A DNA stretch of 64,000 bases, taken from the NCBI GenBank assembly GCA_032250835.1, contig JAVVEA010000005.1, positions 64,001-128,000 on the forward strand. The letters are read 5' to 3'. The notes beneath the pieces are model-generated. The model was not told the DNA's origin, searched no databases, and was given only the letters and a program-made list of their open reading frames with translations. Positions 1-61,900 of the stretch are shown piece after piece. The translations under genes and the position numbers were made by a program. This stretch comes from a bacterium. GTDB lineage: Bacteria; SAR324; XYD2-FULL-50-16. Position 1 is the first letter of the stretch. Each line of letters starts with the position of its first letter.

Positions 1-138
1 AAATTACAGTTGGACGAAGCCCAGTTCCGCTGGATGCTCAATGAAGACGCCATGGCCACCGAAAAGCTGGCCGACGGAATCCGTCGCTTTGGCGCGGATA
101 TCGTAACTTTAGAAGCCTTCTTGCAACAAAACAGCTAA
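1..138 (+). CDS. tal: Transaldolase, C-terminal end (partial, runs in from left edge)
   Basis: Frame 1 translates [33 protein letters not shown]...*, the typical transaldolase C-terminus; TAA at 136-138. Confidence 0.85.
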
Positions 139-145
139 GGACCCC

Positions 146-1036
146 ATGGAACGACTGGCCAGTAAACCGATCCGCGAAGCTATTGAGGTAGACCTAAAAA
201 AAGAGGTCGCCCGGATCAAAGAAGAAGCAAAAATAGAAGTTTGCCTTGCGGTGATCTTGGTCGGTGATGACCCGGCCAGTCACGTTTACGTGGCCAGCAA
301 GGAAAAGGCCTGTGGCCGTTTGGGCATCAAGAGCATCGTCATGAGGCTCCCAGCCGAAACCAGCCAAGCCGAATTATTGGCGCTAATCGACCAGTATAAC
401 AAGGACCCGGACATCCACGGCATCTTGTGTCAAGTCCCCTTGCCCAAGCATTGTAACGAATCCGAGATGATCGAAGCCATCGCCCCCCAAAAGGATGTGG
501 ATTGCTTCCATCCCTACAACCTGGGCCTATTAGCGGCAGGCACGCCCAAATTCATGCCCTGCACGCCCTTTGGCGTCCTCCAAATTTTAAAGCGGAGCCA
601 GATCCAAACGTCCGGTAAAAAGGTGGTCATCGTCGGGCGTAGCAATATTGTGGGGCGGCCTTTGTCCATTTTGTTGTCCCTTAAGGAATGGAATGCTACG
701 GTGACGCTCTGTCATTCGGGCACCGCCGATTTGGCGGCCGAATGCCGCCAAGCGGATATTCTAATCGCCGCTATCGGGCGGCCTGACTTTATCACCAAAG
801 AATTCGTCAAGCCCGGTGCCGTTTTGATCGACGTGGGCATCAACCGAGTTGAAGACCCCGAACACCCCAAGGGTGCACGCTTGGTCGGCGACATCGATTA
901 TGAAGGGGTCTCTTCCATCGCCAGCGCCTGCACGCCGGTCCCTGGCGGAGTGGGGCCCATGACGATCAACATGTTAATGTACAACGTGGTCAACGCCGCC
1001 CGCTTCCAGCTGGGCCTAGAGGCCTATAAACTTTAA
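146..1036 (+). CDS. folD: Bifunctional methylenetetrahydrofolate dehydrogenase/cyclohydrolase
   Basis: LAVILVGDDPASHVYV, KDVDCFHP, PCTP, GRSNIVGRP, TPVPGGVGPMT motifs. Confidence 0.97.
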   Translation: MERLASKPIREAIEVDLKKEVARIKEEAKIEVCLAVILVGDDPASHVYVASKEKACGRLGIKSIVMRLPAETSQAELLALIDQYNKDPDIHGILCQVPLPKHCNESEMIEAIAPQKDVDCFHPYNLGLLAAGTPKFMPCTPFGVLQILKRSQIQTSGKKVVIVGRSNIVGRPLSILLSLKEWNATVTLCHSGTADLAAECRQADILIAAIGRPDFITKEFVKPGAVLIDVGINRVEDPEHPKGARLVGDIDYEGVSSIASACTPVPGGVGPMTINMLMYNVVNAARFQLGLEAYKL

Positions 1037-50044: not shown

Positions 50045-50336
50045 GGTTGCCTTTCACATACTCCTCCCACTCAACGGGCAGGAGGTATTTTTTCTTGTTG
50101 TTACATTCCTTACAGGCGGGCACTAAGTTGCCTTTGACGCTCAACCCACCCCGACTGACGGGGATCTTGTGGTCCATCGTCAACTCGGTGGCGTTGACCC
50201 TTTTTCCGCAATAATAACAAACGCCGCGCCCGCGCAGGTTCTTCCACCATTGAGAATGCCGGAGCTCGCGTGCCTTGGCTTTTTCTCGTTTGAGGTGGGC
50301 TTCGTCAACGGAAATAAAGTCGCCTTCAAATTTCAC
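50028..50336 (-). CDS. Small HNH endonuclease-domain protein
   Basis: CYYCG...TMDHKIPVSRGG...NLVPACKECN. Confidence 0.9.
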   Translation of the reverse strand: MKFEGDFISVDEAHLKREKAKARELRHSQWWKNLRGRGVCYYCGKRVNATELTMDHKIPVSRGGLSVKGNLVPACKECNNKKKYLLPVEWEEYVKGNLDPSD

Positions 50337-51043
50337 TTACATTCCCCCACCGAACCCAAGCCGCAGACCTTCCCATCGATCCATTGGGCCCCTTCTAGCT
50401 GGGCCCCATCAAAATGCGCTCCGGTGATTTTGGCGCCGGTCAGGTCGGCTTCGCGCAGGTCTGCACCCGTTAGGTTGGTGTTTTCTAAACTAGCCCCGAC
50501 CAACTTAGCGCCCCGCAGGTGGGCCCCGATCAGGTTGGCATCGCCTAAAAAGACGTTGCGCAGGTTGGCCCGTTTGAGCCGGGCCCCTCGCAGATCAATC
50601 CCCAGCATCTTGGTTAAGGGCGCAATCAACCCATCCATCCGGGCGTTGTTCAATTCGGCGTAAGAAAGGTCCGAGCCTCCCAGATCCGCACCGACCCAGA
50701 TGGAGTTTGAAGCACTGAGCAGGTTTAAGTCCGCACCGGCGAACTGGGCCCCAGACAGGTCGGCGTTTTCTAGGTTGGCCCAGCGCAGCAGGGTCCCCTT
50801 GGCGCGGATCCCCTTGAGTTGTGCCCCTTTCAGGTCAACCCATTGCAAATTGGCCCGGTCCAAATCGGCTTGGTTGAGGTCCACGCCGCGTAATTGCCAG
50901 CTATTCAGGTCCGCTTCGGCCAGGTTACACCCGGCGCACTTGCGTTCCTTTTCCAGGCGGTCCACATCTTCGGGGAAATAGGCTTGTAGACTCAAGGGCA
51001 TGATGACCACCAAAGCGGCCAAGAGCAGTGATTTCGGTCCCAT
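50333..51043 (-). CDS. Secreted pentapeptide-repeat protein
   Basis: Signal peptide, CAGCNL, tandem A(D/N)Lxx repeats, C-terminal WIDGKVC...C. Confidence 0.9.
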   Translation of the reverse strand: MGPKSLLLAALVVIMPLSLQAYFPEDVDRLEKERKCAGCNLAEADLNSWQLRGVDLNQADLDRANLQWVDLKGAQLKGIRAKGTLLRWANLENADLSGAQFAGADLNLLSASNSIWVGADLGGSDLSYAELNNARMDGLIAPLTKMLGIDLRGARLKRANLRNVFLGDANLIGAHLRGAKLVGASLENTNLTGADLREADLTGAKITGAHFDGAQLEGAQWIDGKVCGLGSVGECK

Positions 51044-51099
51044 AGATTGATCTCTCGAAGTTTTCTTATCCTCTCCGAAATTGCTTCTGCTCGCAACCC

Positions 51100-52683
51100 T
51101 TAAAAGGTTAGGTCCACTTTGAGGCCCCCTTTGGGACTCAGGCTTTGGCTTGATTCGCCTAGCTCTAGAACCCCCCATTGGTAGTCCTGATATTCACCGC
51201 CCACAAACCCGCCTAGCGACAGGTCCAAAGGCAGCGGCCAGCGCAGCCATAAGGCCAAGGTGGTGCTGGTCCCCTTAAACCGCATAGCAGGCTCATTGGC
51301 TGGGGCGTCGGCTTCGCGGGTAAAATCCATGCGGCGGTGGATCAGGCTGATTTCGGGCTCTAAAGGCAGCGTTTCAGAGAGGTCCAAATTGAAGCGGTAA
51401 TGGCGGATTTTGGTCAAATAGTTGGGAGCCGCCGCGATTTCGGCGCGCAGGCGTTCTTTCTCGGCGATTTGTTCGGGGCTATCCCCTTCGCTGATGATGA
51501 TGTTATCCACCTTCCCGTCCACCGACCAGCCAACGTGCAACTCTGCCTTTAAGTCTAAGTCACGGTAGCTCAGCGCCATTTTGTTGATCTCCACTCGGTG
51601 ACGGAAGAAGGCCTCGTCAATATTAACGCCGTACTGCATGGGCATCCACATATATTCTATGGCCCAGGCATCATAGTCAAAACCGCCCATAATATGGTGC
51701 AACTCATTGAGCCTAAAGTCCACCGCCCCCATGTCTTCAGGCTTCCATTTATAGCGTTCCTCGCCCAGTAACAGCCGGTCAAAGTCGTACATGATGCTAA
51801 AGTGCACATAGTCCGCCTTAAGGCGGTAGTAAAACTGGCTCTGGGGCTCTTCATGTAGGCTATAGGGCATCGGGTGGGTACCGGTGACCAAAACCCGCTG
51901 GAACCCAAAGGGCCCTTCGGACAACTGTGACACGAAGCTGGGGATGAAGCTATTGACCCGAGAGCGACTCGCCCCGTAGCGGGTGCCCGAAACAAACCAA
52001 AGGCCGAGACTGTTAAAGTTTTGGTAAACCTGAGGAACAGCGTAGAAAACCTTGTTTTCCCGGTATTCTTCCACCACTTTATAGGCCCCTTGCATCCGGT
52101 CTAATTCCCGGCGGATCAACAGTGGATCGCCCAAGAGTTGCTGCGGATTGATCCGGTTTTCTTTGGGTTGAGCGGCGCAATGGGCAAAGGGATAGGGATG
52201 GGCAAAGCTAGCCTGCTGGCCGCTAGTGGAGCCAAAACTAAGCGGTTTAAGTTCTTCTTGACGGACGATGTCCCAAATTGCGTCGCGCCGGATAATGGTT
52301 TCGCGGCCGTTGAGGCTCAAAAAGCTAATTTCTTGTTCGCTAAAATCTATCGGCCAGCCTTGCACCAATGGCTTTAAAACCCCCTGGTGCCTTGTGCGCA
52401 CCTCCAAGGGGGCTAAAGCCGGGCGGTCAATCTGAGGCAAAAACAACTCACCCATAGGGTAAGAGGCCATGTAGATCACGTCGAAGCGGTCGATCTCTTC
52501 AAACTTCCCCTTTAAATCTAAAAGGGTTAATTTCTCTTCCCCAACATCCAAAATCACCCCAACCGAACGGTTGCAGGCTCCTTTGTATAAGGCGGTGATG
52601 TTGAGCGCTTGGGCGGCCTGGGGGAGGCCTACCGCCCAAAGGAGCACCGCCCCCAGCGCCATGGATTTATAAAATAAATTCAA
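51100..52683 (-). CDS. Hypothetical secreted/outer-membrane protein (paralog of 52667-54265)
   Basis: Signal peptide, aromatic alternating C-terminal strands ending KVDLTF; start uncertain. Confidence 0.65.
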   Translation of the reverse strand: MNLFYKSMALGAVLLWAVGLPQAAQALNITALYKGACNRSVGVILDVGEEKLTLLDLKGKFEEIDRFDVIYMASYPMGELFLPQIDRPALAPLEVRTRHQGVLKPLVQGWPIDFSEQEISFLSLNGRETIIRRDAIWDIVRQEELKPLSFGSTSGQQASFAHPYPFAHCAAQPKENRINPQQLLGDPLLIRRELDRMQGAYKVVEEYRENKVFYAVPQVYQNFNSLGLWFVSGTRYGASRSRVNSFIPSFVSQLSEGPFGFQRVLVTGTHPMPYSLHEEPQSQFYYRLKADYVHFSIMYDFDRLLLGEERYKWKPEDMGAVDFRLNELHHIMGGFDYDAWAIEYMWMPMQYGVNIDEAFFRHRVEINKMALSYRDLDLKAELHVGWSVDGKVDNIIISEGDSPEQIAEKERLRAEIAAAPNYLTKIRHYRFNLDLSETLPLEPEISLIHRRMDFTREADAPANEPAMRFKGTSTTLALWLRWPLPLDLSLGGFVGGEYQDYQWGVLELGESSQSLSPKGGLKVDLTF

Positions 52684-54265
52684 TGGACCCCACCAAGGAA
52701 TACTGGTTTTCCTGGAACCGGCTCGAAGAACCAAAATCCAGTTGGTAGTCGCGCAAGAAGAAATTCAGCTGGCCAGTCAAGACCACATAGCTCCCAAAGC
52801 GTTGTCTGGCATACATCAACGTCTTGATCTGATTTCCTTTAAAACTGCGGTCCTGCTCTTTAAAGACCTCTCGGTAATCTACCTGCTGCAAAATCGCCGC
52901 ACCGCCAAAGGTGATTTCGGGGTCCCAGCGGTAGTCATAATTGCTTCGCAGGTAAAAGACATCAAAACTGAAGCGTTGCAACTGGGCACGCAACTGGGAT
53001 TCTGAATCTAAGGCCAAGCTCGCGCTGATCATCGCGTCGGAGTCGTTTAGGCGCAGCTGTCGCTCATCGGGTTCATCCGCCTCGGCGTGGCTTTTGGCCC
53101 AGATCAGCTTAAAGGAGGATTTAGGGTGCTGGAACATAAACCGGAAGATCGGCGTGGCCTCGGTAGCTAAGACTTCTCGAAAAAGCCCGCCTGCGTTGAG
53201 CCCATAAATGGGATAATATACCCCCGCCGCCAGCGAAAAAGGCCCGTAATCTATCCCCGAAAGGGCTAAATAGTTGAAGCTTTCATTAACCGCCGCTTCT
53301 TTAGCGACGACCTTTTTGTAATAGTCCAGCGCAAAGGCCCGATTGGCGACCATGAACCCACTACCCGCCGCCAGGGCCATCGGGTTGCCCACAAAGCTGG
53401 CGTTGAAGAAATGGGATTTTAGGTCCGTCTGCATCACAAAAACCGGCTCTACTTGGGGCAGCCATTCTACCTGCTTGGTGCCCAAAACCGTCAGGCCTTG
53501 GTGGCTGTAAGGACGACCGGCGGACCATTGGAAGTAAAAGGGGAAAAAGGAGGGGAGTTCCTCATTGCTGTTAGGAACCGTCAGCGGCAGGCCAAACTTG
53601 GTTTCCTCATCAAAAACAAAGGGCCTTGCGTAAAACTGGGTGCGTTCTTGAAAACGCCGCAAATTGGTGAAGCCCTCTTGATAGGCCCCAAAGAACTGGC
53701 TGATGCGGATTTGATCGCTGATCACCCGGGTCGGAAAGAGCGGCTCGCCGGGTCCCGGAGCCTCTTGGTCGTGGCACTGCGAAAGCCCCTGACCCAGACG
53801 GGGCGAAACGGGCTGGGCTTTGGTCGGCGCTAGCTCGGCGGTGAGATGGACGGGCGCTTTAATCCGCACGATTTGGTCGATGCCCACCAAGGAGGTCTTG
53901 CCGTTGGTGTCGTAATAAACCACCAACTCTTCTAAGAACCGGATGGGCCAGCCAGTGAAGGCCGGACCGCCCCGGTGCTTTAGGTGGATTTCGCGTAACT
54001 CCGATTGCAACCGACCGGTCAGGCGGACTTGGGAGATCGGGTTTTCCAGTGCATTGTAGACTAGGATATGGCGTACTTCTTCGCGCCGGATACTGTTGAG
54101 GCGGCCATCTAAGCCCAACAGGTCGATTTGCTGGGCGTCTGTGTAGATGATCAACCCAGCCGGGCCTTCGCACTGGGCGTCCAGCAATCGATAGAGTTCG
54201 ATGGCCTGCGTGGCGGGAACCTGGACCAACAAAAGCGCCAGGAAGGCTAAAATTATCCGGTTCAT
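52667..54265 (-). CDS. Hypothetical secreted/outer-membrane protein (paralog of 51100-52683)
   Basis: Signal peptide; shares GWPIxF and LDxxG...IxR motifs with its neighbour; ends SIEFIL. Confidence 0.65.
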   Translation of the reverse strand: MNRIILAFLALLLVQVPATQAIELYRLLDAQCEGPAGLIIYTDAQQIDLLGLDGRLNSIRREEVRHILVYNALENPISQVRLTGRLQSELREIHLKHRGGPAFTGWPIRFLEELVVYYDTNGKTSLVGIDQIVRIKAPVHLTAELAPTKAQPVSPRLGQGLSQCHDQEAPGPGEPLFPTRVISDQIRISQFFGAYQEGFTNLRRFQERTQFYARPFVFDEETKFGLPLTVPNSNEELPSFFPFYFQWSAGRPYSHQGLTVLGTKQVEWLPQVEPVFVMQTDLKSHFFNASFVGNPMALAAGSGFMVANRAFALDYYKKVVAKEAAVNESFNYLALSGIDYGPFSLAAGVYYPIYGLNAGGLFREVLATEATPIFRFMFQHPKSSFKLIWAKSHAEADEPDERQLRLNDSDAMISASLALDSESQLRAQLQRFSFDVFYLRSNYDYRWDPEITFGGAAILQQVDYREVFKEQDRSFKGNQIKTLMYARQRFGSYVVLTGQLNFFLRDYQLDFGSSSRFQENQYSLVGSIEFIL

Positions 54266-54936
54266 GGTAAAGTGATATTTTTCACAAATCGTTCAAATAA
54301 GTCGTCTAACTGAGGCAATACCCACTCACGACCGGGCAATTCCGCTGTGTCCCAGGCCTGGGCTACCAATTGAGGGGTCAAGCAGGCTAAAGCGGGCCCA
54401 GAGATTTCGGCGAAACTGACGTGCCAAGGTTCGGGGGCCACGCCGCCTAAATCACGGGCATAGGGGCGGAAAAAACCAAAGGGGCTTAGGTTATGATCCA
54501 GCCACCGGTTTAATTTTTCGAAAACCCCGCCGTTGGCGTATTCTTCGGGCAGTAGCTGCACCTGATAACCCGGCGGGAGGGCGGCCAAATCGATCAAGTC
54601 CAATTCGCTGCCCCAATGGTGCCGACTAGCACCGGGCAGAGCCGACCAACGCAGAATCGCCAAAACCAAGGCCTCAGGGGAGAGGGACTCAAAGTCCAGA
54701 ACCTTTCCCTGGGTATCATAAAGCGGGCGTTGGCCCGTTAGCTTAAGCCGCCAGATTCTCGCCTGGCTCTCAAAATCACGAAAGCCCGAAAAGACCCCTA
54801 GTTCGATCCCTTCCTTGCGGGCTTTTTGACGTAGGTCGATAAAAGCGCGCACCGCCAAGGGCGCGGCGGCAAAGCGCGGCTCTTGCACCTGAAGTATATG
54901 CTGGCGGGTTTTCCCGGTCAACTCGGCGGGCGTCAT
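54262..54936 (-). CDS. M15-family D-Ala-D-Ala carboxypeptidase (VanY-like)
   Basis: SGFRDF, SALPGASRHHWG..LD, EPWH. Confidence 0.9.
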   Translation of the reverse strand: MTPAELTGKTRQHILQVQEPRFAAAPLAVRAFIDLRQKARKEGIELGVFSGFRDFESQARIWRLKLTGQRPLYDTQGKVLDFESLSPEALVLAILRWSALPGASRHHWGSELDLIDLAALPPGYQVQLLPEEYANGGVFEKLNRWLDHNLSPFGFFRPYARDLGGVAPEPWHVSFAEISGPALACLTPQLVAQAWDTAELPGREWVLPQLDDLFERFVKNITLP

Positions 54937-55568
54937 GAGGGATATAAGACCTCTTTTAAATCGCGCTGGGGAAGTTTGGACAGTTGGCTGAAGATGGCTT
55001 CGACCTGTTGCCGCGTTTCTTCTAAGCTGCCGGAGTTATCCACCACATAGTCGGCGCGGGCTCGCTTTTCTTCGAGTGGTAATTGGGCCTGAATGCGCCG
55101 CTCGATCTCAACTAGGTTCATGCCGCGCCCCTCGACCAACCGGCGGACCTGTTCGGCAGGCTCCAAGGCAACCAAGATCGTGGCGGCAAAGCGAGATTGG
55201 AGGTTTTTTTCAAATAATAGGGGGATTAGGTAACAGACCCGGGCGTCGGGGTCTTGTTGGAACAACTGCCGCAACAGCCGCTTTTTTTCATGGGCGATGC
55301 GCCGGTGGGTGATCGCTTCTAGCTCGCGCAGTAAAGGCAGCTCATTAAAAACGATTTCCGCCACCCTCTGGCGGTCCATTTCGCCGTTGGGCAAGAGGAT
55401 CTTAGGACCTAACAGGTCGACCACCTCTTCTAAGCCCTCACTCCCCTTGGCCACCACCTTGCGGGCTAGTTGGTCTGAATCAATGATGCGCCAGCCTAAG
55501 GCTTCAACCATCGGGGCCAGCGTGCTTTTCCCCGAGCCGATTCCTCCGGTCAAGGCCACCAAGATCAT
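54933..55568 (-). CDS. coaE: Dephospho-CoA kinase
   Basis: LTGGIGSGKST, IDSDQLAR, IPLLFE, VDNSG. Confidence 0.95.
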   Translation of the reverse strand: MILVALTGGIGSGKSTLAPMVEALGWRIIDSDQLARKVVAKGSEGLEEVVDLLGPKILLPNGEMDRQRVAEIVFNELPLLRELEAITHRRIAHEKKRLLRQLFQQDPDARVCYLIPLLFEKNLQSRFAATILVALEPAEQVRRLVEGRGMNLVEIERRIQAQLPLEEKRARADYVVDNSGSLEETRQQVEAIFSQLSKLPQRDLKEVLYPS

Positions 55569-55569
55569 C

Positions 55570-56109
55570 TCAGTTCTCCCGTAGGTACCCAATCAAAGAC
55601 CCAAACCAACGCGTCAGGGTCAGGTAATATTTAACCAAAATCAAGGCCAGGAAATACCAAACCAGCAGACTGTGGGAAATATGCAGTAATTCTAACCCAG
55701 GCCATCCGCCCAGGTGCAGACGGGTTTTAAGGTGCAACAGTAAGCCCAATAGGGCAATCAAGCCGAGGGTAGAAAAAAACATCAGGTCCACCCAATGCCG
55801 GGGGCCTCGGCTTTTTATCTCGCGGATTTGGTCGCGGGCGGCGCTGCCTGCTTGTTTGAGCGCCACCTTCGGCGCGGTACGTCCCTGTATCCGGTCGTAA
55901 ACCAAAGCGACCAATACGGTGATCAACAAGATGCCAAAGGCCCGGTGGAACAATTGCATCTCGATGCGCCCAAAGGACTCTAAGATTTCTAAACGCCGCA
56001 GACCCAAGGCGGTCAGGTAACAAAGCAGGATCGCCGAGGGCAAGCCAAAACGGCGGAACTGGCGGATGCCAAATTCGTAGGCTGAAAAACGCAGCGATTG
56101 GAGATTCAT
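55570..56109 (-). CDS. Four-TM membrane protein, cytochrome b-like subunit of the hydrogenase-like complex
   Basis: Four hydrophobic segments with His in TM2 (LFHRAFG) and TM4 (LHISHSL); third gene after the small and large subunits. Confidence 0.6.
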   Translation of the reverse strand: MNLQSLRFSAYEFGIRQFRRFGLPSAILLCYLTALGLRRLEILESFGRIEMQLFHRAFGILLITVLVALVYDRIQGRTAPKVALKQAGSAARDQIREIKSRGPRHWVDLMFFSTLGLIALLGLLLHLKTRLHLGGWPGLELLHISHSLLVWYFLALILVKYYLTLTRWFGSLIGYLREN

Positions 56110-56115
56110 CGGCTC

Positions 56116-57576
56116 CTATTGGGTAGCGTCCAGGGCCATCGCATAATAGCTATGTAAAATGCGGTTGGCGGTCAGCGGTTTGATCGGGTTGTTCTCACTC
56201 AGTCGGTTCAACTCAGACTCGACCAAGCCGGTCTTGCCGAATTCGTCACGGCTGCTGAGCGTCCAGTTGGCCGGTGCCACGATCCGGTATCCGGTGATGG
56301 CTCCTTCGCCGATAAAGACCTGGTGCATCAAGCTACCCGAAGGCGCTTCGACCAGCCCCGTCCCGGTCCCACGCCCAGAGAAGGCAAGGGGCCGTTGTAG
56401 GTTGAGCTTTTGGCTAAAATCAAAACCCATCAGACTCTTAAAGAGGCTTAACATCAAAAAGCGCCCTTCAAAAGCTTCGGCCAGCAAGCGTGAGGCCGCG
56501 CTATTAGCGCGGTCGGAGCTAAGGCCTAGGTCTTCGATCCAAGCCGAGATGCTGTCGGAAATCTGCACGTTGCCGCCGCCGTAGTGGGTCACCAACATCC
56601 GCGCCAGGGGACCGGTCTGCATCACTTCGATTTCGTACCGGGCGGCTTTGATCCAGGTTTTCGCCTCTTTTTTGTTGAGGTCATAAATCAGATCGTTGGA
56701 CAGGCTCTTATTGTCCGCCGAACGGTAATAAGTGTCCACGAAAGATTCGGTCACCTTAGCGGCATTCAGGGGCTCCAATTTACCGTCCAGGTAAACACCG
56801 GAGGTATAATAAGAGGGGTCATCTTTGGCGTTTTCGATGTCCATGGAACCGAAGCTGATGAGCTGTTGGTTCTCGCCTAGTCCCTGGGCCAACTCCGGGG
56901 TTGCGCCGATCAAGGCCCGCAGATCGCCCGGCCAAGTTACCTCTACTGTTTGTTTGATGCCTTCGAGCAGCCGCAACAACCGCATCACCTGGTCTCGACT
57001 GACTTGCTGGTTAGTCACCCCGCCGGGGATCAAGTTCATCACGATCGGGAACTTTCCGCCTAGAAGCCCCAAACATTGTTGTAGCTTGCCTAAACAGGTC
57101 ACTACCTGGGGCAAATGGCTCAAAATCAGCCGCCCGCTTTCATGGCCTAAATCGCCCGGGGCTTCTTCACGCATCGCTAAAGCCGGAAAAAAGCTAGCCC
57201 GCAGCAGGCCTTGGGCCTTAAAGTGACGCTGGTTCAGATAGTCCGGCAGGACTTCAAAATAGAAATGAGAAATATGGGCGTGTAAAGTGGAGAGCTGCAG
57301 CATGATCTGGCGGATCTTCTGGCCCCCGTAGGTAGGCTTGATCTGGAGAAAGTTTTCCAGCGCTAAGGCAGCCGCCAAACCGTGAGCCACCCCGTTTTTG
57401 GCCGAAAGGGTCTGGGTCAGTTGGACTGCCTCCAAAGGAGACTTGCCAAAGAGCCGCCCTTCCATGTGCAGGGTGCGGCCCGACTGCAATAAAACCCGCC
57501 CTTCTTCGCCGTCGGTCTCCACCGAAACCTTCAACAGGCCTTCAATATTAGGAACCCGTTCGATCAATGATTTCAA
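56116..57576 (-). CDS. [NiFe]-hydrogenase large-subunit homolog lacking all Ni/Fe ligands
   Basis: Recognisable scaffold (NIEG, HFY...LPDY, PGGVT, WIKAARY, GPLARM, EAPSG.L.H, Y.IVAP.NW). L1 reads TQTLSAKNGVAH and L2 reads RILHSYYAMALDATQ. Confidence 0.9.
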   Translation of the reverse strand: MKSLIERVPNIEGLLKVSVETDGEEGRVLLQSGRTLHMEGRLFGKSPLEAVQLTQTLSAKNGVAHGLAAALALENFLQIKPTYGGQKIRQIMLQLSTLHAHISHFYFEVLPDYLNQRHFKAQGLLRASFFPALAMREEAPGDLGHESGRLILSHLPQVVTCLGKLQQCLGLLGGKFPIVMNLIPGGVTNQQVSRDQVMRLLRLLEGIKQTVEVTWPGDLRALIGATPELAQGLGENQQLISFGSMDIENAKDDPSYYTSGVYLDGKLEPLNAAKVTESFVDTYYRSADNKSLSNDLIYDLNKKEAKTWIKAARYEIEVMQTGPLARMLVTHYGGGNVQISDSISAWIEDLGLSSDRANSAASRLLAEAFEGRFLMLSLFKSLMGFDFSQKLNLQRPLAFSGRGTGTGLVEAPSGSLMHQVFIGEGAITGYRIVAPANWTLSSRDEFGKTGLVESELNRLSENNPIKPLTANRILHSYYAMALDATQ

Positions 57577-58547
57577 GACTCATCCTCCCGGTCGTCGATC
57601 TGGTATTTGCGGGCCGAGCGTTTGGTTGCTCCGTGGATTCCTAAGCCCACCAAGGTTACCCCAAAGGCCCCGTAGGCCAAATCTTCGGCATGACGGACCC
57701 AGCCAGACTGGACCCCGGCAATCCGGTGGCTCAGTTGGCCGAAAAGACCCTGACCATGGTGCGAGGGGTAGTCGGGTTCCGAACAGCCGGTGCAGGGGCT
57801 GCCTACCGAAACACACCATTCATCGCTGCCGTTCCATTGGACGATGGGGCAGTCATTATAGGTGACCCGGCCTTTGCAGCCTAAGAGATAAAGACAACCT
57901 TCGCGTTCGCCGTGGTAGCGTACATAATCGCCCTTTTCAAAGTCGCCCCGGTATTCACAGCGGTCACAGACCAACTGTTCAAAAAACATGCGGGGCCGGC
58001 GGTGTTCGTCTAGTTCAGGTAGGCCATACATCAACAAATGGTTGAGTAAACCCAGCAGATGACGAGATTGGGCCGGTTGGCCAGGGATGCGGATCACCGG
58101 GGCGGGAGCACCCGAAAGAATCTGTCCGTTGAGGTCTAAATACCCGCCGGGCTTTTCGGCCAAATAGCTAGCTTCATTCCCCAAAAGGACCACGACCTTC
58201 GCGCGGGTGATCCAAGCATGTAAGATTTGGTTGACCCGGTCTAAGGCATCGTCGGGGAAAGCGCCTTCCAAAATGAGGATCGGTGGGCTTTGGTCTTCCT
58301 GGGGTTCTTCTCCTTCGGCCTCTAGACGGCGGAAGTAGCGCGCCAAGAAGGAAGGATATTCCTCTAGGCCCCACAGCCCGAGGCTGTGCGTCTCTGCGCT
58401 GTTGCCTTTCAGCCAGACCAAGGGTTCGGCTGCGCCCACTTCTTCCTGGGCCAACAAGTTGCTCAAGTTGGCGCTGAGGAAAGAAAGGCTCAAGGCCCCG
58501 GTGCCCAGCAGGCGGATAAAGTCTCTTCTGTTGTGTTGGTGGCTCAT
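57573..58547 (-). CDS. [NiFe]-hydrogenase small-subunit homolog (Tat signal, C-terminal TM); proximal cluster ligands absent
   Basis: NRRDFIR Tat motif; CDRC, CLYLLGCKG, NDCP, WC, PCTGCSEP retained; WLKGNSAETHS, GNEAS, PGQPA in place of the Cys motifs. Confidence 0.9.
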   Translation of the reverse strand: MSHQHNRRDFIRLLGTGALSLSFLSANLSNLLAQEEVGAAEPLVWLKGNSAETHSLGLWGLEEYPSFLARYFRRLEAEGEEPQEDQSPPILILEGAFPDDALDRVNQILHAWITRAKVVVLLGNEASYLAEKPGGYLDLNGQILSGAPAPVIRIPGQPAQSRHLLGLLNHLLMYGLPELDEHRRPRMFFEQLVCDRCEYRGDFEKGDYVRYHGEREGCLYLLGCKGRVTYNDCPIVQWNGSDEWCVSVGSPCTGCSEPDYPSHHGQGLFGQLSHRIAGVQSGWVRHAEDLAYGAFGVTLVGLGIHGATKRSARKYQIDDREDES

Positions 58548-58552
58548 AGAAT

Positions 58553-59488
58553 TTATTGACCGGTTCTTTCCCTTTGATACCGGTACAAAGGCGCTCCGTA
58601 AAGGTCAAAAAACCGCGCCGAGAGCCGCTCGCGATTGGCCTGAAGGTACAAGAAACCCTGGCCGGGGTGTAGGAAAAGCGAGCCGGAACGCCCCTGGGGC
58701 GACTGGGACCCCTTGTAGGGATAACCGCCACCACCGGAGATCAAAAAATCGGTGCCCTCAGGATTGAGCTGAATATGCTCTAAATGATGTTCATGGCCCG
58801 AGAGCAACAAATCCACTTGCTCCCCCAGCCAGACATCCCAAAGCCAACGCAGCATCGCCGGTGCATCGCCATGATCCCCTGAACCATAAAGATTGTGGTG
58901 GGCAAAAACCAAACGCCAAGACTGAGCCGGAGCCAAGTCCAGTTGGTCCTTGAGCCAACCCCAACCGAAGGGGCGGCAGTTGGAGTTGAGTCCATACAAC
59001 TCCACCGGTCCCGCGCTGAGGTGGTATTTAAAGTCCGGCATGCGCCACTTGAGGCTATGTAAGCTGTATTCACGCTGGGCCAGGACGGAGCCTTTGGCGT
59101 CGTGGTTGCCTAAAACCACCAGAAAAGGCAGGTCCAAGTCGGCGTAGACCGACTCAAAATGACTGACCCATTGGGGGTCGGCTAGGCTGGTGACTCCTTT
59201 GGGGTAAAAGTTATCGCCCAAATAGAGGACCAAGTCGCAGCCCAGTTCAGCGCAAACCTTGGCGATTGATTGGGCCACTTGGGCTTGCAACCATTCGCCG
59301 GTACCCGCGTCGCCCAAGACAATCAACCGCAGCTCCGCTTTGCCCTTAAAGGTGTCTAGGGACATCAAAGCCCCCTGATCGGCGCAGCCCTTAGCCTGCC
59401 ATTGGGACCTTAGCTGCAGCAACGCCCATAAACCTAACAACAGCAGCACAGCGGCCAAAGCCCAGCGGAAGCGGCCTTTGGGTAACAT
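58553..59488 (-). CDS. Membrane-anchored metallophosphoesterase (purple/tartrate-resistant acid phosphatase-like)
   Basis: GDAG, GDNFY, GNHD, AHH, SGHEH. Confidence 0.9.
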   Translation of the reverse strand: MLPKGRFRWALAAVLLLLGLWALLQLRSQWQAKGCADQGALMSLDTFKGKAELRLIVLGDAGTGEWLQAQVAQSIAKVCAELGCDLVLYLGDNFYPKGVTSLADPQWVSHFESVYADLDLPFLVVLGNHDAKGSVLAQREYSLHSLKWRMPDFKYHLSAGPVELYGLNSNCRPFGWGWLKDQLDLAPAQSWRLVFAHHNLYGSGDHGDAPAMLRWLWDVWLGEQVDLLLSGHEHHLEHIQLNPEGTDFLISGGGGYPYKGSQSPQGRSGSLFLHPGQGFLYLQANRERLSARFFDLYGAPLYRYQRERTGQ

Positions 59489-59494
59489 GGGGAT

Positions 59495-60817
59495 TTACTG
59501 GGGGAAGTCTTTAAAGATCAATTCCATCTCCGCTTCTGCCTGGATCAGCGAGAAGCGTTCCTCTACCGCTTGGCGTAAGAATCGATTGATGGCGTCGATT
59601 TTTCCAATGGCGTAGTCGATCATCTTATTGGAGCCCTTTACATAAGCCCCGATGTTGATCAAATCCTCGGCTTCTTTGAAGGTCGCCAAGGTTTGGACCA
59701 TCCGGCTGGCGTTTTTCTGCATCGCCTTTGAGGTTACCTCTACCATCACCCTGGATTTAGACCGCAAGACGTCTATGGCCGGGTAATGCCCCTGGGCGGC
59801 GATTTCTCGGTCTAAGAGGATGTGGCCATCGACGATAGAGCGCACGGCGTCGCCGATCGGTTCGTTGGGGTCGTCGCCTTCGACCAAAACCGTATAAAAG
59901 CCCGTTAACGAGCCCGATGCCTTGGAATTACCGGCCCGCTCTAAAAGCTTAGGCAGCAGCGCATAGACCGAAGGGGGGTAGCCCTTGGTGGTTGGCGGTT
60001 CGCCGACGGCCAGACCAATTTCGCGTTGGGCCATCGCAAAGCGCGTGACCGAATCCATCATCAAAATCACATCCTGGCCTTGTTCGCGGAACCATTCGGC
60101 GATAGTGGTCGCCAAATAGGCGCCGTGCAGGCGCACCAAAGGGCTATGGTCGCTGGTTGCGGCAATCACGATGCTACGCTTAAGGCCCTCGGGCCCCAGG
60201 TCGCGCTCAATAAATTCCCGCACCTCTCGGCCCCGCTCGCCGATCAGCGCGATCACGTTGACTGCGGCGGTGGTGTTACGGGCCATCATGCCTAGCAATA
60301 CGGACTTACCCACACCCGAACCGGCCAAAATAGCCATCCGCTGTCCCTTACCGGCGGTCAAAAGGCCGTTGATGGCCTTAATGCCCACGTCTAAAGGCTC
60401 CTCGATGCGGCGTCGGTGCATGGGGTTGATCGGATCAGCGTAGAGCGGGGCTTTAAAGCGGGTGAAGATCGGGCCTAGATCGTCAATGGGTTGGCCCGTA
60501 CCGTCCATGCAGCGCCCCAATAGCTCGGGCCCGACGGGCACCAAGGTCTTTTCGACACTAGGGCGGACCACTGAGTCCGGGCCGACGCCCCGGATATCGC
60601 CTAGGGGCATGACAAAAACATACTTCCCCTTAATCCCCACCGCCTCACCGGCCACTTTCTCGCCGGTCTGCCGATCTAAGATGTGGCAGCGCCCGCCGAT
60701 ACGCATGCCGGGGTTGTGGGCGCGGATCATGAAGCCCACCACCTCGTCTACCTTGCCTTCGGGCTGATCGGTGTGCAGTTGGGAGACGCGCTGGCCATAG
60801 TCGTCTAAGGAAAACAT
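59495..60817 (-). CDS. fliI: Flagellar export ATPase
   Basis: AGSGVGKS, IGERGREV, MDSVTRFAMAQREIG, KGYPPSV. Confidence 0.95.
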   Translation of the reverse strand: MFSLDDYGQRVSQLHTDQPEGKVDEVVGFMIRAHNPGMRIGGRCHILDRQTGEKVAGEAVGIKGKYVFVMPLGDIRGVGPDSVVRPSVEKTLVPVGPELLGRCMDGTGQPIDDLGPIFTRFKAPLYADPINPMHRRRIEEPLDVGIKAINGLLTAGKGQRMAILAGSGVGKSVLLGMMARNTTAAVNVIALIGERGREVREFIERDLGPEGLKRSIVIAATSDHSPLVRLHGAYLATTIAEWFREQGQDVILMMDSVTRFAMAQREIGLAVGEPPTTKGYPPSVYALLPKLLERAGNSKASGSLTGFYTVLVEGDDPNEPIGDAVRSIVDGHILLDREIAAQGHYPAIDVLRSKSRVMVEVTSKAMQKNASRMVQTLATFKEAEDLINIGAYVKGSNKMIDYAIGKIDAINRFLRQAVEERFSLIQAEAEMELIFKDFPQ

Positions 60818-60823
60818 AGGCTC

Positions 60824-61900
60824 CTAAGGATTGCTGGGGTCGAACTCAGGAGGCGCTTTCAACTCATTGGGGACCGGGCCTGTTGGGGCGGCCTGCTCGG
60901 CGGGAGCGGCCGGGGGCGCGGTTGCTGGCCCTTGGGCCTTTTCGGCGTTCCGCTCGGCCACAAAATGAGGGTCGAACAGTGAGCGGCGCTCATCTAGGCA
61001 ATCACCTAAGACCCGCTCGATTTCTTCAAACTGCTGGTTGAGGTCCATCTGAACGCGGGCGAAGTCAGTCTCGACCACCGGACCGCTGGCTGAAACGCTC
61101 TCGCTTTTGCGGAAGGTCAAATATTGCCCTTCTTCCAGATAGGCTTCTAATTCCGGCTTGTGTTTGGCCAAAAAGTCGTATTCCACGGGATGCACGGTGA
61201 TGCGCACCTTGCCCAGGCCTTCAAAGTGCTTGAGCGCTGTTTTGATCAGGTTCAAAACAAATTCAGGCCGGGTCTTTAACTCTTCATGGACCACCTTCTT
61301 AGCCATCAACAAAGTCTGTTGGACTATTTCGGTTTCGTGCTGGTGGGCCAGGGTGATGCGGAGATCTTTCAACTCGGCCAACAAGTCCGTCACCTGCACC
61401 GCCAATTCAGCGCTATCCTTACGGGCTAATTCCAGCCCCGCTTCATAGCCTTTGGCGTGGCCCACTTCATAGGCGGCCCGTTCGATTTCCTCTACCGAGG
61501 CCTCGGCCTTTTCCACCATCGCCAGGGCGTCTTTTTCGGCTTCTTCGCGCCGGATCTGGGCATGAGCTAAGGTTTCTTCAGCCTCGGACAAGGCTAAATC
61601 GGCATTGCGCATGATCAGCTTCGCCTGTCGGTCGGCCTCGCTGCGGATGCGCTTGGAGTATTCCTCGACGTTGGTCAGTAAGCTGCCCTCTTCAACAAAG
61701 GCATTGGAGGTAAACTTGCTGGCGTCGCGGGTATCTAGGCGGATCGTGGCCTTGGCGCTTTTGGTGATCAGTGATTCGGGCTCGAAGGCCCGGACCTCTG
61801 GGTCCTCCTCGGGGCCTCCGAAACTCTGCATCACCTCTACCTGCGGGGCGTCGTCCTCGCTGATGTCCTCGAATTGTGGGGGAAGGAACTGGTTTTCCAT
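60824..61900 (-). CDS. fliH: Flagellar assembly protein FliH
   Basis: Coiled coil with AYEVGHAKGYEAG (GxxxG) repeats, RITVHPVEY; lies between fliF and fliI. Confidence 0.85.
   Translation of the reverse strand: MENQFLPPQFEDISEDDAPQVEVMQSFGGPEEDPEVRAFEPESLITKSAKATIRLDTRDASKFTSNAFVEEGSLLTNVEEYSKRIRSEADRQAKLIMRNADLALSEAEETLAHAQIRREEAEKDALAMVEKAEASVEEIERAAYEVGHAKGYEAGLELARKDSAELAVQVTDLLAELKDLRITLAHQHETEIVQQTLLMAKKVVHEELKTRPEFVLNLIKTALKHFEGLGKVRITVHPVEYDFLAKHKPELEAYLEEGQYLTFRKSESVSASGPVVETDFARVQMDLNQQFEEIERVLGDCLDERRSLFDPHFVAERNAEKAQGPATAPPAAPAEQAAPTGPVPNELKAPPEFDPSNP

Follow-up and report, generated by a model that had tools for sequence, protein, structure and literature searches.

A conserved relative of membrane-bound group-1 [NiFe] hydrogenases that lacks the metal-binding cysteines and probably does not metabolize hydrogen

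A three-gene set (triad) encoding homologues of the small subunit, the large subunit and the cytochrome b of membrane-bound group-1 [NiFe] hydrogenases was analysed in a 64,000-nucleotide stretch of DNA from a SAR324 bacterium (assembly GCA_032250835.1, contig JAVVEA010000005.1, positions 64,001 to 128,000 of the forward strand), referred to here as the window. The triad is read as a degenerate, non-hydrogen-metabolizing descendant of such an enzyme, retained as a membrane-anchored electron-transfer module with a non-catalytic scaffold, and this reading is given a probability of roughly 0.6. That the complex is not a hydrogenase and is under selection is held with high confidence, while a role in electron transfer is proposed only tentatively. 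The homology to hydrogenases, the lost and the retained ligands, the twin-arginine translocation (Tat) motif, the conservation of the triad, its single origin and its independence from the Hyp proteins are directly supported by the data presented below. A previous sequence-only reading of this DNA concerned the large subunit; all three subunits prove to be altered, and throughout a family.

The triad spans 58547-55570 on the minus strand of the window, to which all window coordinates given here refer, with the small-subunit gene upstream, the large-subunit gene in the middle and the membrane-protein gene downstream. The small-subunit homologue (57573..58547, 324 amino acids [aa]) begins with a Tat signal; its N-domain lacks the proximal cluster, its C-domain holds eight cysteines, and its C-terminus is hydrophobic and putatively membrane-anchoring. 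The large-subunit homologue (56116..57576, 486 aa), recognized by PF00374 and by its AlphaFold2 model, has zero metal-binding cysteines. The third gene (55570..56109) encodes a protein of 179 aa and four helices that was assigned, from its model and the Pfam matches of its orthologues, as a putative diverged cytochrome b of the HyaC/FdnI type. The TTG start of the large-subunit gene overlaps the stop codon of the small-subunit gene (cTTGA), which suggests translational coupling, and a GGAGG ribosome-binding site read from the sequence (57584..57588) lies 7 nucleotides (nt) 5′ of that start.

The large subunit is a true homologue of the large subunits of group-1 [NiFe] and [NiFeSe] hydrogenases. 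It matched PF00374 with 169.3 bits against a gathering cut-off of 25.8 and aligned end to end with solved group-1 large subunits of both types (E 6.6e-28 to 1e-25). Among the NCBIfam hydrogenase models its best match was NF033181, with a score of 193.9 against a cut-off of 600. The AlphaFold2 model had a predicted local distance difference test (pLDDT) score of 74 and a predicted template-modeling (TM) score of 0.83. Foldseek placed it closest to 3ze7_B (E 3.4e-27, TM 0.79), and over the solved periplasmic [NiFe] and [NiFeSe] structures the TM values were 0.76-0.83, so that the comparison of a model with solved large subunits, which the sequence-only reading had proposed, came out as a match. 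A search of the ESM Atlas gave generic hydrogenase clusters only.

Every motif substitution that had been named from the sequence was seen in the HMMER and MAFFT alignments. The RIEGH motif reads NIEGL (residues 10-14) with Glu12 retained, and RGxE reads LHME (residues 36-39) with retention of Glu39, which belongs to the Mg site. The former L1 motif, TQTLSAKNGVAH (residues 54-65, 57382..57417), carries Ser58 for the first metal-binding cysteine (Cys1) and Asn61 for the second (Cys2), and retains His65. EAPRG has become EAPSG (residues 410-414, 56335..56349), so that the active-site arginine is lost to Ser413, and VVPSTWN has become VAPANWT (residues 433-439). The former L2 motif, SYYAMALDATQ (residues 476-486, 56119..56151), has Met480 for Cys3, Asp483 for Cys4 and Gln486 for the terminal histidine, and is followed by the stop codon. 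The chain had been claimed to stop at the mature terminus with no cleavable extension. Indeed, zero residues lie beyond the position of the canonical terminal histidine, most canonical rows of the same alignment add 12-33, and the tail length was 0 in all cysteine-free rows.

These features are those of a family. A protein search returned 30 relatives at E ≤4e-66, whose named sources were metagenome-assembled genomes (MAGs) labelled Candidatus Lambdaproteobacteria, SAR324 cluster or unclassified bacteria; the other nine matches of the same search were canonical, cysteine-bearing hydrogenases of at most 28% identity. A profile search of 1.84 billion representatives added to this first clade (clade A) a deeper cysteine-free clade (clade B) of about 30% identity to the window protein, with the same three-gene order at its loci. 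A FastTree phylogeny with 132 large subunits united its 33 cysteine-free rows, from clades A and B, in one clade with a support of 100 and resolved no canonical sister group; rows shorter than 430 aa or gapped at the four cysteine positions had been dropped, and clade A had been thinned to every second row of P0002-P0031. Judged from these sequences, the cysteine-free triad is one monophyletic, conserved family.

The signature E-S-x-H-x-x-D/E-x at eight diagnostic positions, with no cysteine at the four ligand positions and no C-terminal tail, was present in 24/24 independently assembled loci, comprising the window, 15 loci from public genome records (L009-L023) and eight from genomes of the phylum set (L027-L034). 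One signature in all of these loci is due neither to chance nor to an assembly fault, and the latter, the outcome that would have undone the sequence-only reading, is thereby excluded. Amino-acid identity among the DNA orthologues was at most 65%, a divergence at which synonymous sites are expected to be saturated, and across the family it ranged from 27 to 77% with length and terminus conserved. Of 88 genomes searched in the phylum, 37 contained a full-length large-subunit match, 18 of them scoring at least 519 bits and 19 scoring 215-295 bits, with the next best score in the 88 genomes at 143 bits; none of the 37 contained an internal stop. In a set of related loci, genes for the large subunit and for the membrane protein were each present in 15/15 and that for the small subunit in 14/15, the remaining locus being truncated at the large subunit.

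Other cysteine-poor homologues outside the family (P0063, P0168, P0185, P0130, P0114 and P0146) have lost some or all of the four cysteines and are scattered in the tree, whose well-supported branches force at least eight independent changes. Loss of the NiFe ligands may thus have occurred several times, and some of these outside cases could be errors or pseudogenes.

Conservation at the old active site was counted over 32 clade-A, 14 clade-B and 88 canonical large subunits, a column being called conserved at 85% or more in both cysteine-free clades. The sequence-only reading had proposed that the serine, asparagine, methionine and aspartate replacing the cysteines, together with a histidine, form a new pocket, with conservation among orthologues as the deciding evidence. 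Two of the four replacements proved conserved. The Cys1 position was serine in 32/32 clade-A rows (in clade B, serine in 10/14 and glycine in 4/14), and the Cys4 position was aspartate or glutamate in 46/46 rows of both clades. The Cys2 position varied (N/S/G/L/A/T), as did the Cys3 position in clade A (M/Q/S/G/H/N/C/L/K/Y/V), the position of the former active-site arginine (S/G/A/T/E/L) and the terminal residue (Q/K/R/H/L/E). Asparagine and methionine are therefore not part of any conserved site, and the data do not support the proposed pocket of four residues. One clade-A row (P0016) has a cysteine at the third position only, and 14/14 clade-B rows are cysteine-free at all four.

What remains conserved at the old pocket is a smaller polar cluster of Glu12 (43/46), His65 (45/46) and Asp/Glu483 (46/46), with or without Ser58. 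Fifty columns were conserved by the 85% measure in clades A and B. Canonical enzymes conserve the same residue in about 41 of these, and three only (Leu114, Gln166 and Met180) are family-specific, none of these lying within the old L1 or L2. This distribution fits a scaffold better than a new site. The other option named in the sequence-only reading, a pure scaffold, is accordingly favored by the shared columns and by the loss of the proximal cluster described below, but it does not require the conserved glutamate, histidine and aspartate.

The small subunit was detectable with Pfam by its C-terminal domain alone (PF14720, 82.7 bits against a cut-off of 27), with no match to PF01058, and scored 116.8 with TIGR00391, under the cut-off of 179.5. 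By hhalign it aligned over its full length, signal and C-terminal anchor included, with the canonical group-1 small subunit of the same genome (probability 99.9). Residues were counted in an alignment of 65 clade-A, six clade-B and 20 canonical rows. The twin-arginine motif NRRDFIR (58512..58532, by alignment) has an RR pair and a phenylalanine that are invariant in a 15-row alignment, and RRx[FLIVM] occurs within the first 60 aa of 53/65 family members.

The proximal cluster has been lost from this subunit. Alignment identified the remnants of its motifs as LLGNEA, where cysteine is replaced by Glu125, and IPGQPA, where it is replaced by glutamine (58071..58187). Over the 65 family rows, position C17 was serine in 53; C20 was histidine in 44, glutamine in 12, aspartate in six and asparagine in three; C115 was glutamate in 57 and aspartate in five (and one or the other in 5/6 clade-B rows); and C149 was variable. 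The N-domain was entirely cysteine-free in 48 of these 65 subunits. Canonical small subunits had cysteine at C17, C115 and C149 in 20/20 rows.

The distal and medial clusters, on the other hand, are predicted to persist. Their ligand motifs VCDRC, GCLYLLGCKG, YNDCP and WCVSVGSPCTGCSEP were aligned at 57774..57971, and the eight cysteines were invariant in 65/65 clade-A and 6/6 clade-B rows. They include a cysteine in place of the canonical distal histidine and another in place of the canonical medial proline, which implies two all-cysteine [4Fe-4S] clusters, predicted here from the retained ligands. The putative membrane anchor, the C-terminal hydrophobic segment AYGAFGVTLVGLGIHGA (57627..57677), was matched by hhalign to the anchor at the C-terminus of the canonical protein, histidine on histidine, and this histidine was present in 65/65 clade-A and 1/6 clade-B rows.

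The membrane protein is, by its sequence and model, probably a diverged HyaC-like four-helix protein that keeps only the periplasmic-side pair of histidines and may bind one heme b. PF01292 was matched by three of seven copies tested (the window copy and six orthologues), one above the cut-off (36.3 against 30.1) and two below. The AlphaFold2 model had a pLDDT of 82, and the top five Foldseek matches were the cytochrome b of Hyd-1, FdnI and CybB (TM 0.50-0.60, E 0.055-0.36). His55 in helix 2 (codon 55945..55947) and His146 in helix 4 (codon 55672..55674) were invariant in 17/17 rows and are the putative heme ligands from alignment and topology. By hhalign, His55 aligned with the helix-2 histidine of canonical cytochrome b, and the canonical second helix-4 histidine corresponded to Lys160, a position held by K or R in every alignment row. 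A helix-1 histidine was present in about 9/16 rows by reading of the alignment and absent from the window copy. The ligand set of the two-heme PF01292 proteins, with four histidines (one in helix 1, one in helix 2 and two in helix 4), was thus not found complete. Loop 73-104 has nine K+R residues, and the other two loops have one or two, so that by the positive-inside rule both His55 and His146 lie where their helices end on the periplasmic side. By comparison with the FdnI structure, the retained pair is presumably that of the periplasmic heme and the lost pair that of the cytoplasmic heme.

Prediction of a complex of the membrane protein, the small-subunit C-domain and heme gave a score of 0.48, the best of three controls reaching 0.05, and lends weak support to the association. 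The mark used for this score was reached by 58/80 solved complexes and 2/110 mismatched pairs; of those that reached it, only seven of the solved complexes, and both of the mismatches, did so with a score of 0.60 or less. Runs agreed in at least 65% of contacts, with a partner pLDDT of at least 70. The predicted contact may also reflect likeness alone, since a similar complex, Hyd-1 with its cytochrome b, has been solved.

The family is independent of hydrogen metabolism in its distribution. HypD was absent from 19 of the 37 carrier genomes, and each of these 19 had a single large-subunit match, the family gene. Eight of them are at least 90% complete, and two are closed genomes of a single contig (1.6-1.7 Mb); the absence calls are limited by genome completeness except in the two closed genomes. 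HypE scored above its cut-off in 0/5 of the HypD-less carriers tested. In the same five genomes the family gene was the only full PF00374 match, with one extra partial match of 41 bits in one genome, and NuoH and a heme-copper oxidase were each present in 5/5, indicating that a quinone-based chain is present. Across the phylum HypD tracks the canonical enzymes and not the cysteine-free family. Partnership of the triad with a canonical hydrogenase was considered and rejected, because the 19 carriers have neither another large subunit nor HypD. The two closed genomes (G005 and G006), which belong to a related family, have kept the triad, NuoH and heme-copper oxidase; no FliG, no HypD and no HypE above the cut-off was found in them. 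That genomes so reduced have retained the triad points to a useful function.

The genome of the window carries a complete canonical operon, a cytosolic hydrogenase of 481 aa and HypD, so that the cysteine-free complex is an addition there and not the sole hydrogenase-like system. The canonical membrane-bound operon (locus L001 on contig C43, 290-4298) encodes a small subunit of 365 aa, a tailed large subunit of 572 aa, a four-histidine cytochrome b and a maturation protease. Its small subunit carries CTCC and CAFAGC in a six-cysteine proximal motif, the pattern of O2-tolerant enzymes. The large subunit of the cytosolic enzyme lies on the same contig (locus L002, 1498-2943). About 1 kb downstream of its gene, an open reading frame (ORF) of 134 aa (65-469, minus strand of L002) ends in a near-copy of its last ~37 residues with SFDPCMQCTVH intact, as if the 3′ end of the 481-aa hydrogenase gene had been partially duplicated.

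These observations can be assembled into a model for the triad as an electron-transfer module. The small subunit would receive its clusters in the cytoplasm, bind the signal-less large subunit and carry it through the Tat system, as in canonical enzymes, and assembly would need no nickel insertion and no C-terminal proteolysis. The small-subunit tail and the cytochrome b would hold the complex at the periplasmic face of the membrane. Electrons would move between a single heme b on the periplasmic side and the two retained clusters, distal and medial, and the module would link the quinone pool with a periplasmic partner docking at the distal cluster. The old active site would lie out of their reach, because loss of the proximal relay cuts it off from the remaining clusters, and this in turn makes it unlikely that the large subunit has gained a new redox-active site. 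The large subunit would then be a structural scaffold for the iron-sulfur (Fe-S) subunit, on which the small subunit folds.

Several points weigh against this model. Conserved Glu12, His65 and Asp/Glu483 are not required by a pure scaffold, although Glu12 and His65 are conserved in canonical enzymes too. An electron chain stopping at the medial cluster would serve no evident purpose. The distance that would isolate the old pocket from the medial cluster is taken from the geometry of solved hydrogenases, in which neighbouring centres lie about 12-13 Å apart. For the membrane protein, the window copy had no Pfam match, no Foldseek match of its model reached an E of 0.001, and hhalign against canonical cytochrome b was weak (probability 2.3%, E 0.02); heme binding is for these reasons described as putative. 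The small-subunit tail fell below the Kyte-Doolittle threshold used. No RNA run containing the operon was found, and one DNA run from a soil metagenome held 0.13 of its words. The heme and the clusters are predicted from their ligands.

The same residues can be read as a new site. The old NiFe pocket might have been rebuilt as a non-cysteine site for a metal or small molecule, formed by Glu12, His65 and Asp/Glu483 with or without Ser58 and endowed with a new catalytic or sensing activity, and the former proximal-cluster site in the small subunit (Glu125 with histidine or glutamine) may have been rebuilt as well. An acidic residue at Cys4 in all 46 rows, serine at Cys1 throughout clade A (32/32), and retention of Glu12 and His65 at 91-100% across clades of only about 30% identity agree with this, as do the acidic residue at C115 of the small subunit (62/65 and 5/6 rows) and the histidine at C20 (44/65); carboxylates and histidine in place of cysteine are what a hard-metal site needs. 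Such a site is nevertheless unlikely. The Cys2, arginine and terminal positions vary freely, as does Cys3 in clade A, and Ser58 gives way to glycine in 4/14 clade-B rows. Neither L1 nor L2 holds any of the three family-specific columns, Glu12 and His65 may be structural since canonical enzymes conserve them also, and the pocket would be buried and, without the proximal cluster and judging by the geometry of solved hydrogenases, unwired to the clusters that remain. In its more specific form, in which a Tat-exported group-1 hydrogenase was turned into a periplasmic metalloenzyme or sensor that holds a hard metal or small molecule at Glu12/His65/Asp483 (with Ser58) and at the old proximal Glu/His site, the proposal is quite unlikely; if true, it would parallel the conversion of the NiFe pocket of a group-4 ancestor into the quinone site of complex I.

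It was also considered that the complex has no redox role and is a structural or regulatory periplasmic module in which the Fe-S clusters are kept for folding only. An electron chain without a visible end point would be explained in this way, the conserved residues are those of the framework, and complex I is known to keep clusters off the electron pathway for the sake of stability. This explanation was nonetheless judged improbable, in view of the eight cluster cysteines that are invariant in 71/71 small subunits and of the two periplasmic-side histidines invariant in 17/17 membrane subunits; the fixed replacement of the distal histidine and the medial proline by cysteine suggests clusters that are tuned and not merely tolerated. 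Decay of a hydrogenase operon into a pseudogene remnant would account for the lost catalytic residues and for NCBIfam equivalog scores far under their cut-offs. It is very hard to reconcile, however, with frames intact in 24/24 loci and in 37/88 genomes, with a divergence as deep as 27-77% identity over which length and terminus are conserved, with a gene overlap suggestive of translational coupling, and with an operon kept in two closed genomes of 1.6-1.7 Mb. Continued conversion of H2 through an unusual metal ligation is barely credible: the fold, the RIEGH glutamate, His65 and the Mg-site Glu39 have been kept, but all four cysteines, the arginine and the proximal cluster are gone, no C-terminal extension exists for nickel-dependent processing, HypD is missing from 19/37 carriers and HypE was over its cut-off in none of five. 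The electron-transfer module on a non-catalytic scaffold is preferred over these explanations.

In the window the triad lies in a run of closely spaced or overlapping genes (54262-61900) comprising a fliH-like gene, fliI, a metallophosphoesterase gene, the triad, coaE and a gene for a VanY-type peptidase, and the same order recurs in several related MAGs. If coaE is taken to begin at the first start codon available, its ORF shares 23 nt with the end of the membrane-protein gene. The triad adjoins fliF/H/I in the window, and FliI was nearby in 8/15 related loci; fliR/flhB-like or flhG-like ORFs were seen by eye near three clade-B loci. A flagellar role was rejected, as FliG is present in 80/88 genomes and in 42 of the 45 genomes of the bacterial family that lacks the triad, and the two closed carriers have no FliG; over the phylum, flagella and triad do not co-vary. 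The metallophosphoesterase gene upstream (58553-59488) was likewise rejected as part of the system, being present in only 5/15 related loci. Farther along the strand, two adjacent ORFs of 544 and 532 aa (51100-54265), each with an N-terminal hydrophobic, signal-like segment, have counterparts of 52-60% identity next to the VanY gene of locus L009, and a 281-aa ORF (50333-51178) consists, by eye, largely of pentapeptide-like repeats (ADLxx/ANLxx) after a hydrophobic N-terminal segment.

Hydrogenase homologues that are free of H2 metabolism are few, and they include complex I, with its central place in bioenergetics. The present family would show which parts of a hydrogenase are worth keeping after catalysis, namely the fold, a pair of clusters, a single heme and the devices for export and anchoring. 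Pfam-based surveys of H2 metabolism and annotation pipelines would miscount the triad as an uptake hydrogenase in 37/88 genomes of the phylum. It also offers a natural apo-like large subunit for the study of assembly and of Tat hitch-hiking without nickel insertion. A literature search that did not cover supplementary hydrogenase tables brought up no account of a group-1 hydrogenase homologue without the cysteines. As far as these searches show, the triad would be the first non-H2 homologue derived from periplasmic, Tat-exported group-1 enzymes.

Among known systems, the closest likeness is to membrane-bound group-1 hydrogenases with a cytochrome b, such as E. coli Hyd-1 (HyaABC), the membrane-bound hydrogenase (MBH) of Cupriavidus and the group-1d-type operon on contig C43 of the window genome. 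All have the same three-gene order, a Tat-exported small subunit with a C-terminal anchor, a signal-less large subunit and a four-helix cytochrome b; both hydrogenase subunits are homologous over their full length, and the model of the membrane protein is closest to the cytochrome b of Hyd-1. Unlike these enzymes, the cysteine-free triad has no NiFe ligands, active-site arginine, proximal cluster or C-terminal extension, has cysteine for the distal histidine and the medial proline, keeps two of four histidines in its cytochrome b, and is Hyp-independent. Periplasmic [NiFeSe] hydrogenases of group 1a (D. vulgaris Hildenborough, Dm. baculatum) supplied the best NCBIfam model (NF033181) and the best structures (3ze7_B and 4kl8_L), are of similar length (~485 aa), and have a medial cluster with a fourth cysteine, as in the cysteine-free family. 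The family differs from them in having neither selenocysteine nor cysteine ligands, and its NF033181 score of 193.9 stays well short of 600. Some regulatory and other hydrogenases also end at the terminal histidine without an extension, for example canonical row P0033 and the 481-aa cytosolic enzyme of the window genome, but these keep the four cysteines and are cytoplasmic, whereas the present family has a Tat signal and no cysteine. A passage of the HydDB paper lists, as homologues of hydrogenases without H2 metabolism, Nuo, Ehr, NARF and HmdII, and the cysteine-free family is absent from that list (PMC5037454). Membership in the Ehr or complex I groups is not indicated, since the best matches were all to periplasmic group-1 enzymes and a Tat signal is present, and no antiporter-like subunits are encoded among the neighbouring genes. 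Complex I (NuoD/NuoB) and Ehr nevertheless represent the same kind of event, in which a [NiFe] module without its metal-binding cysteines was kept for another role; those systems derive from group 4 and face the cytoplasm, whereas the family described here comes from Tat-exported group-1 enzymes and would keep two clusters and a cytochrome b.

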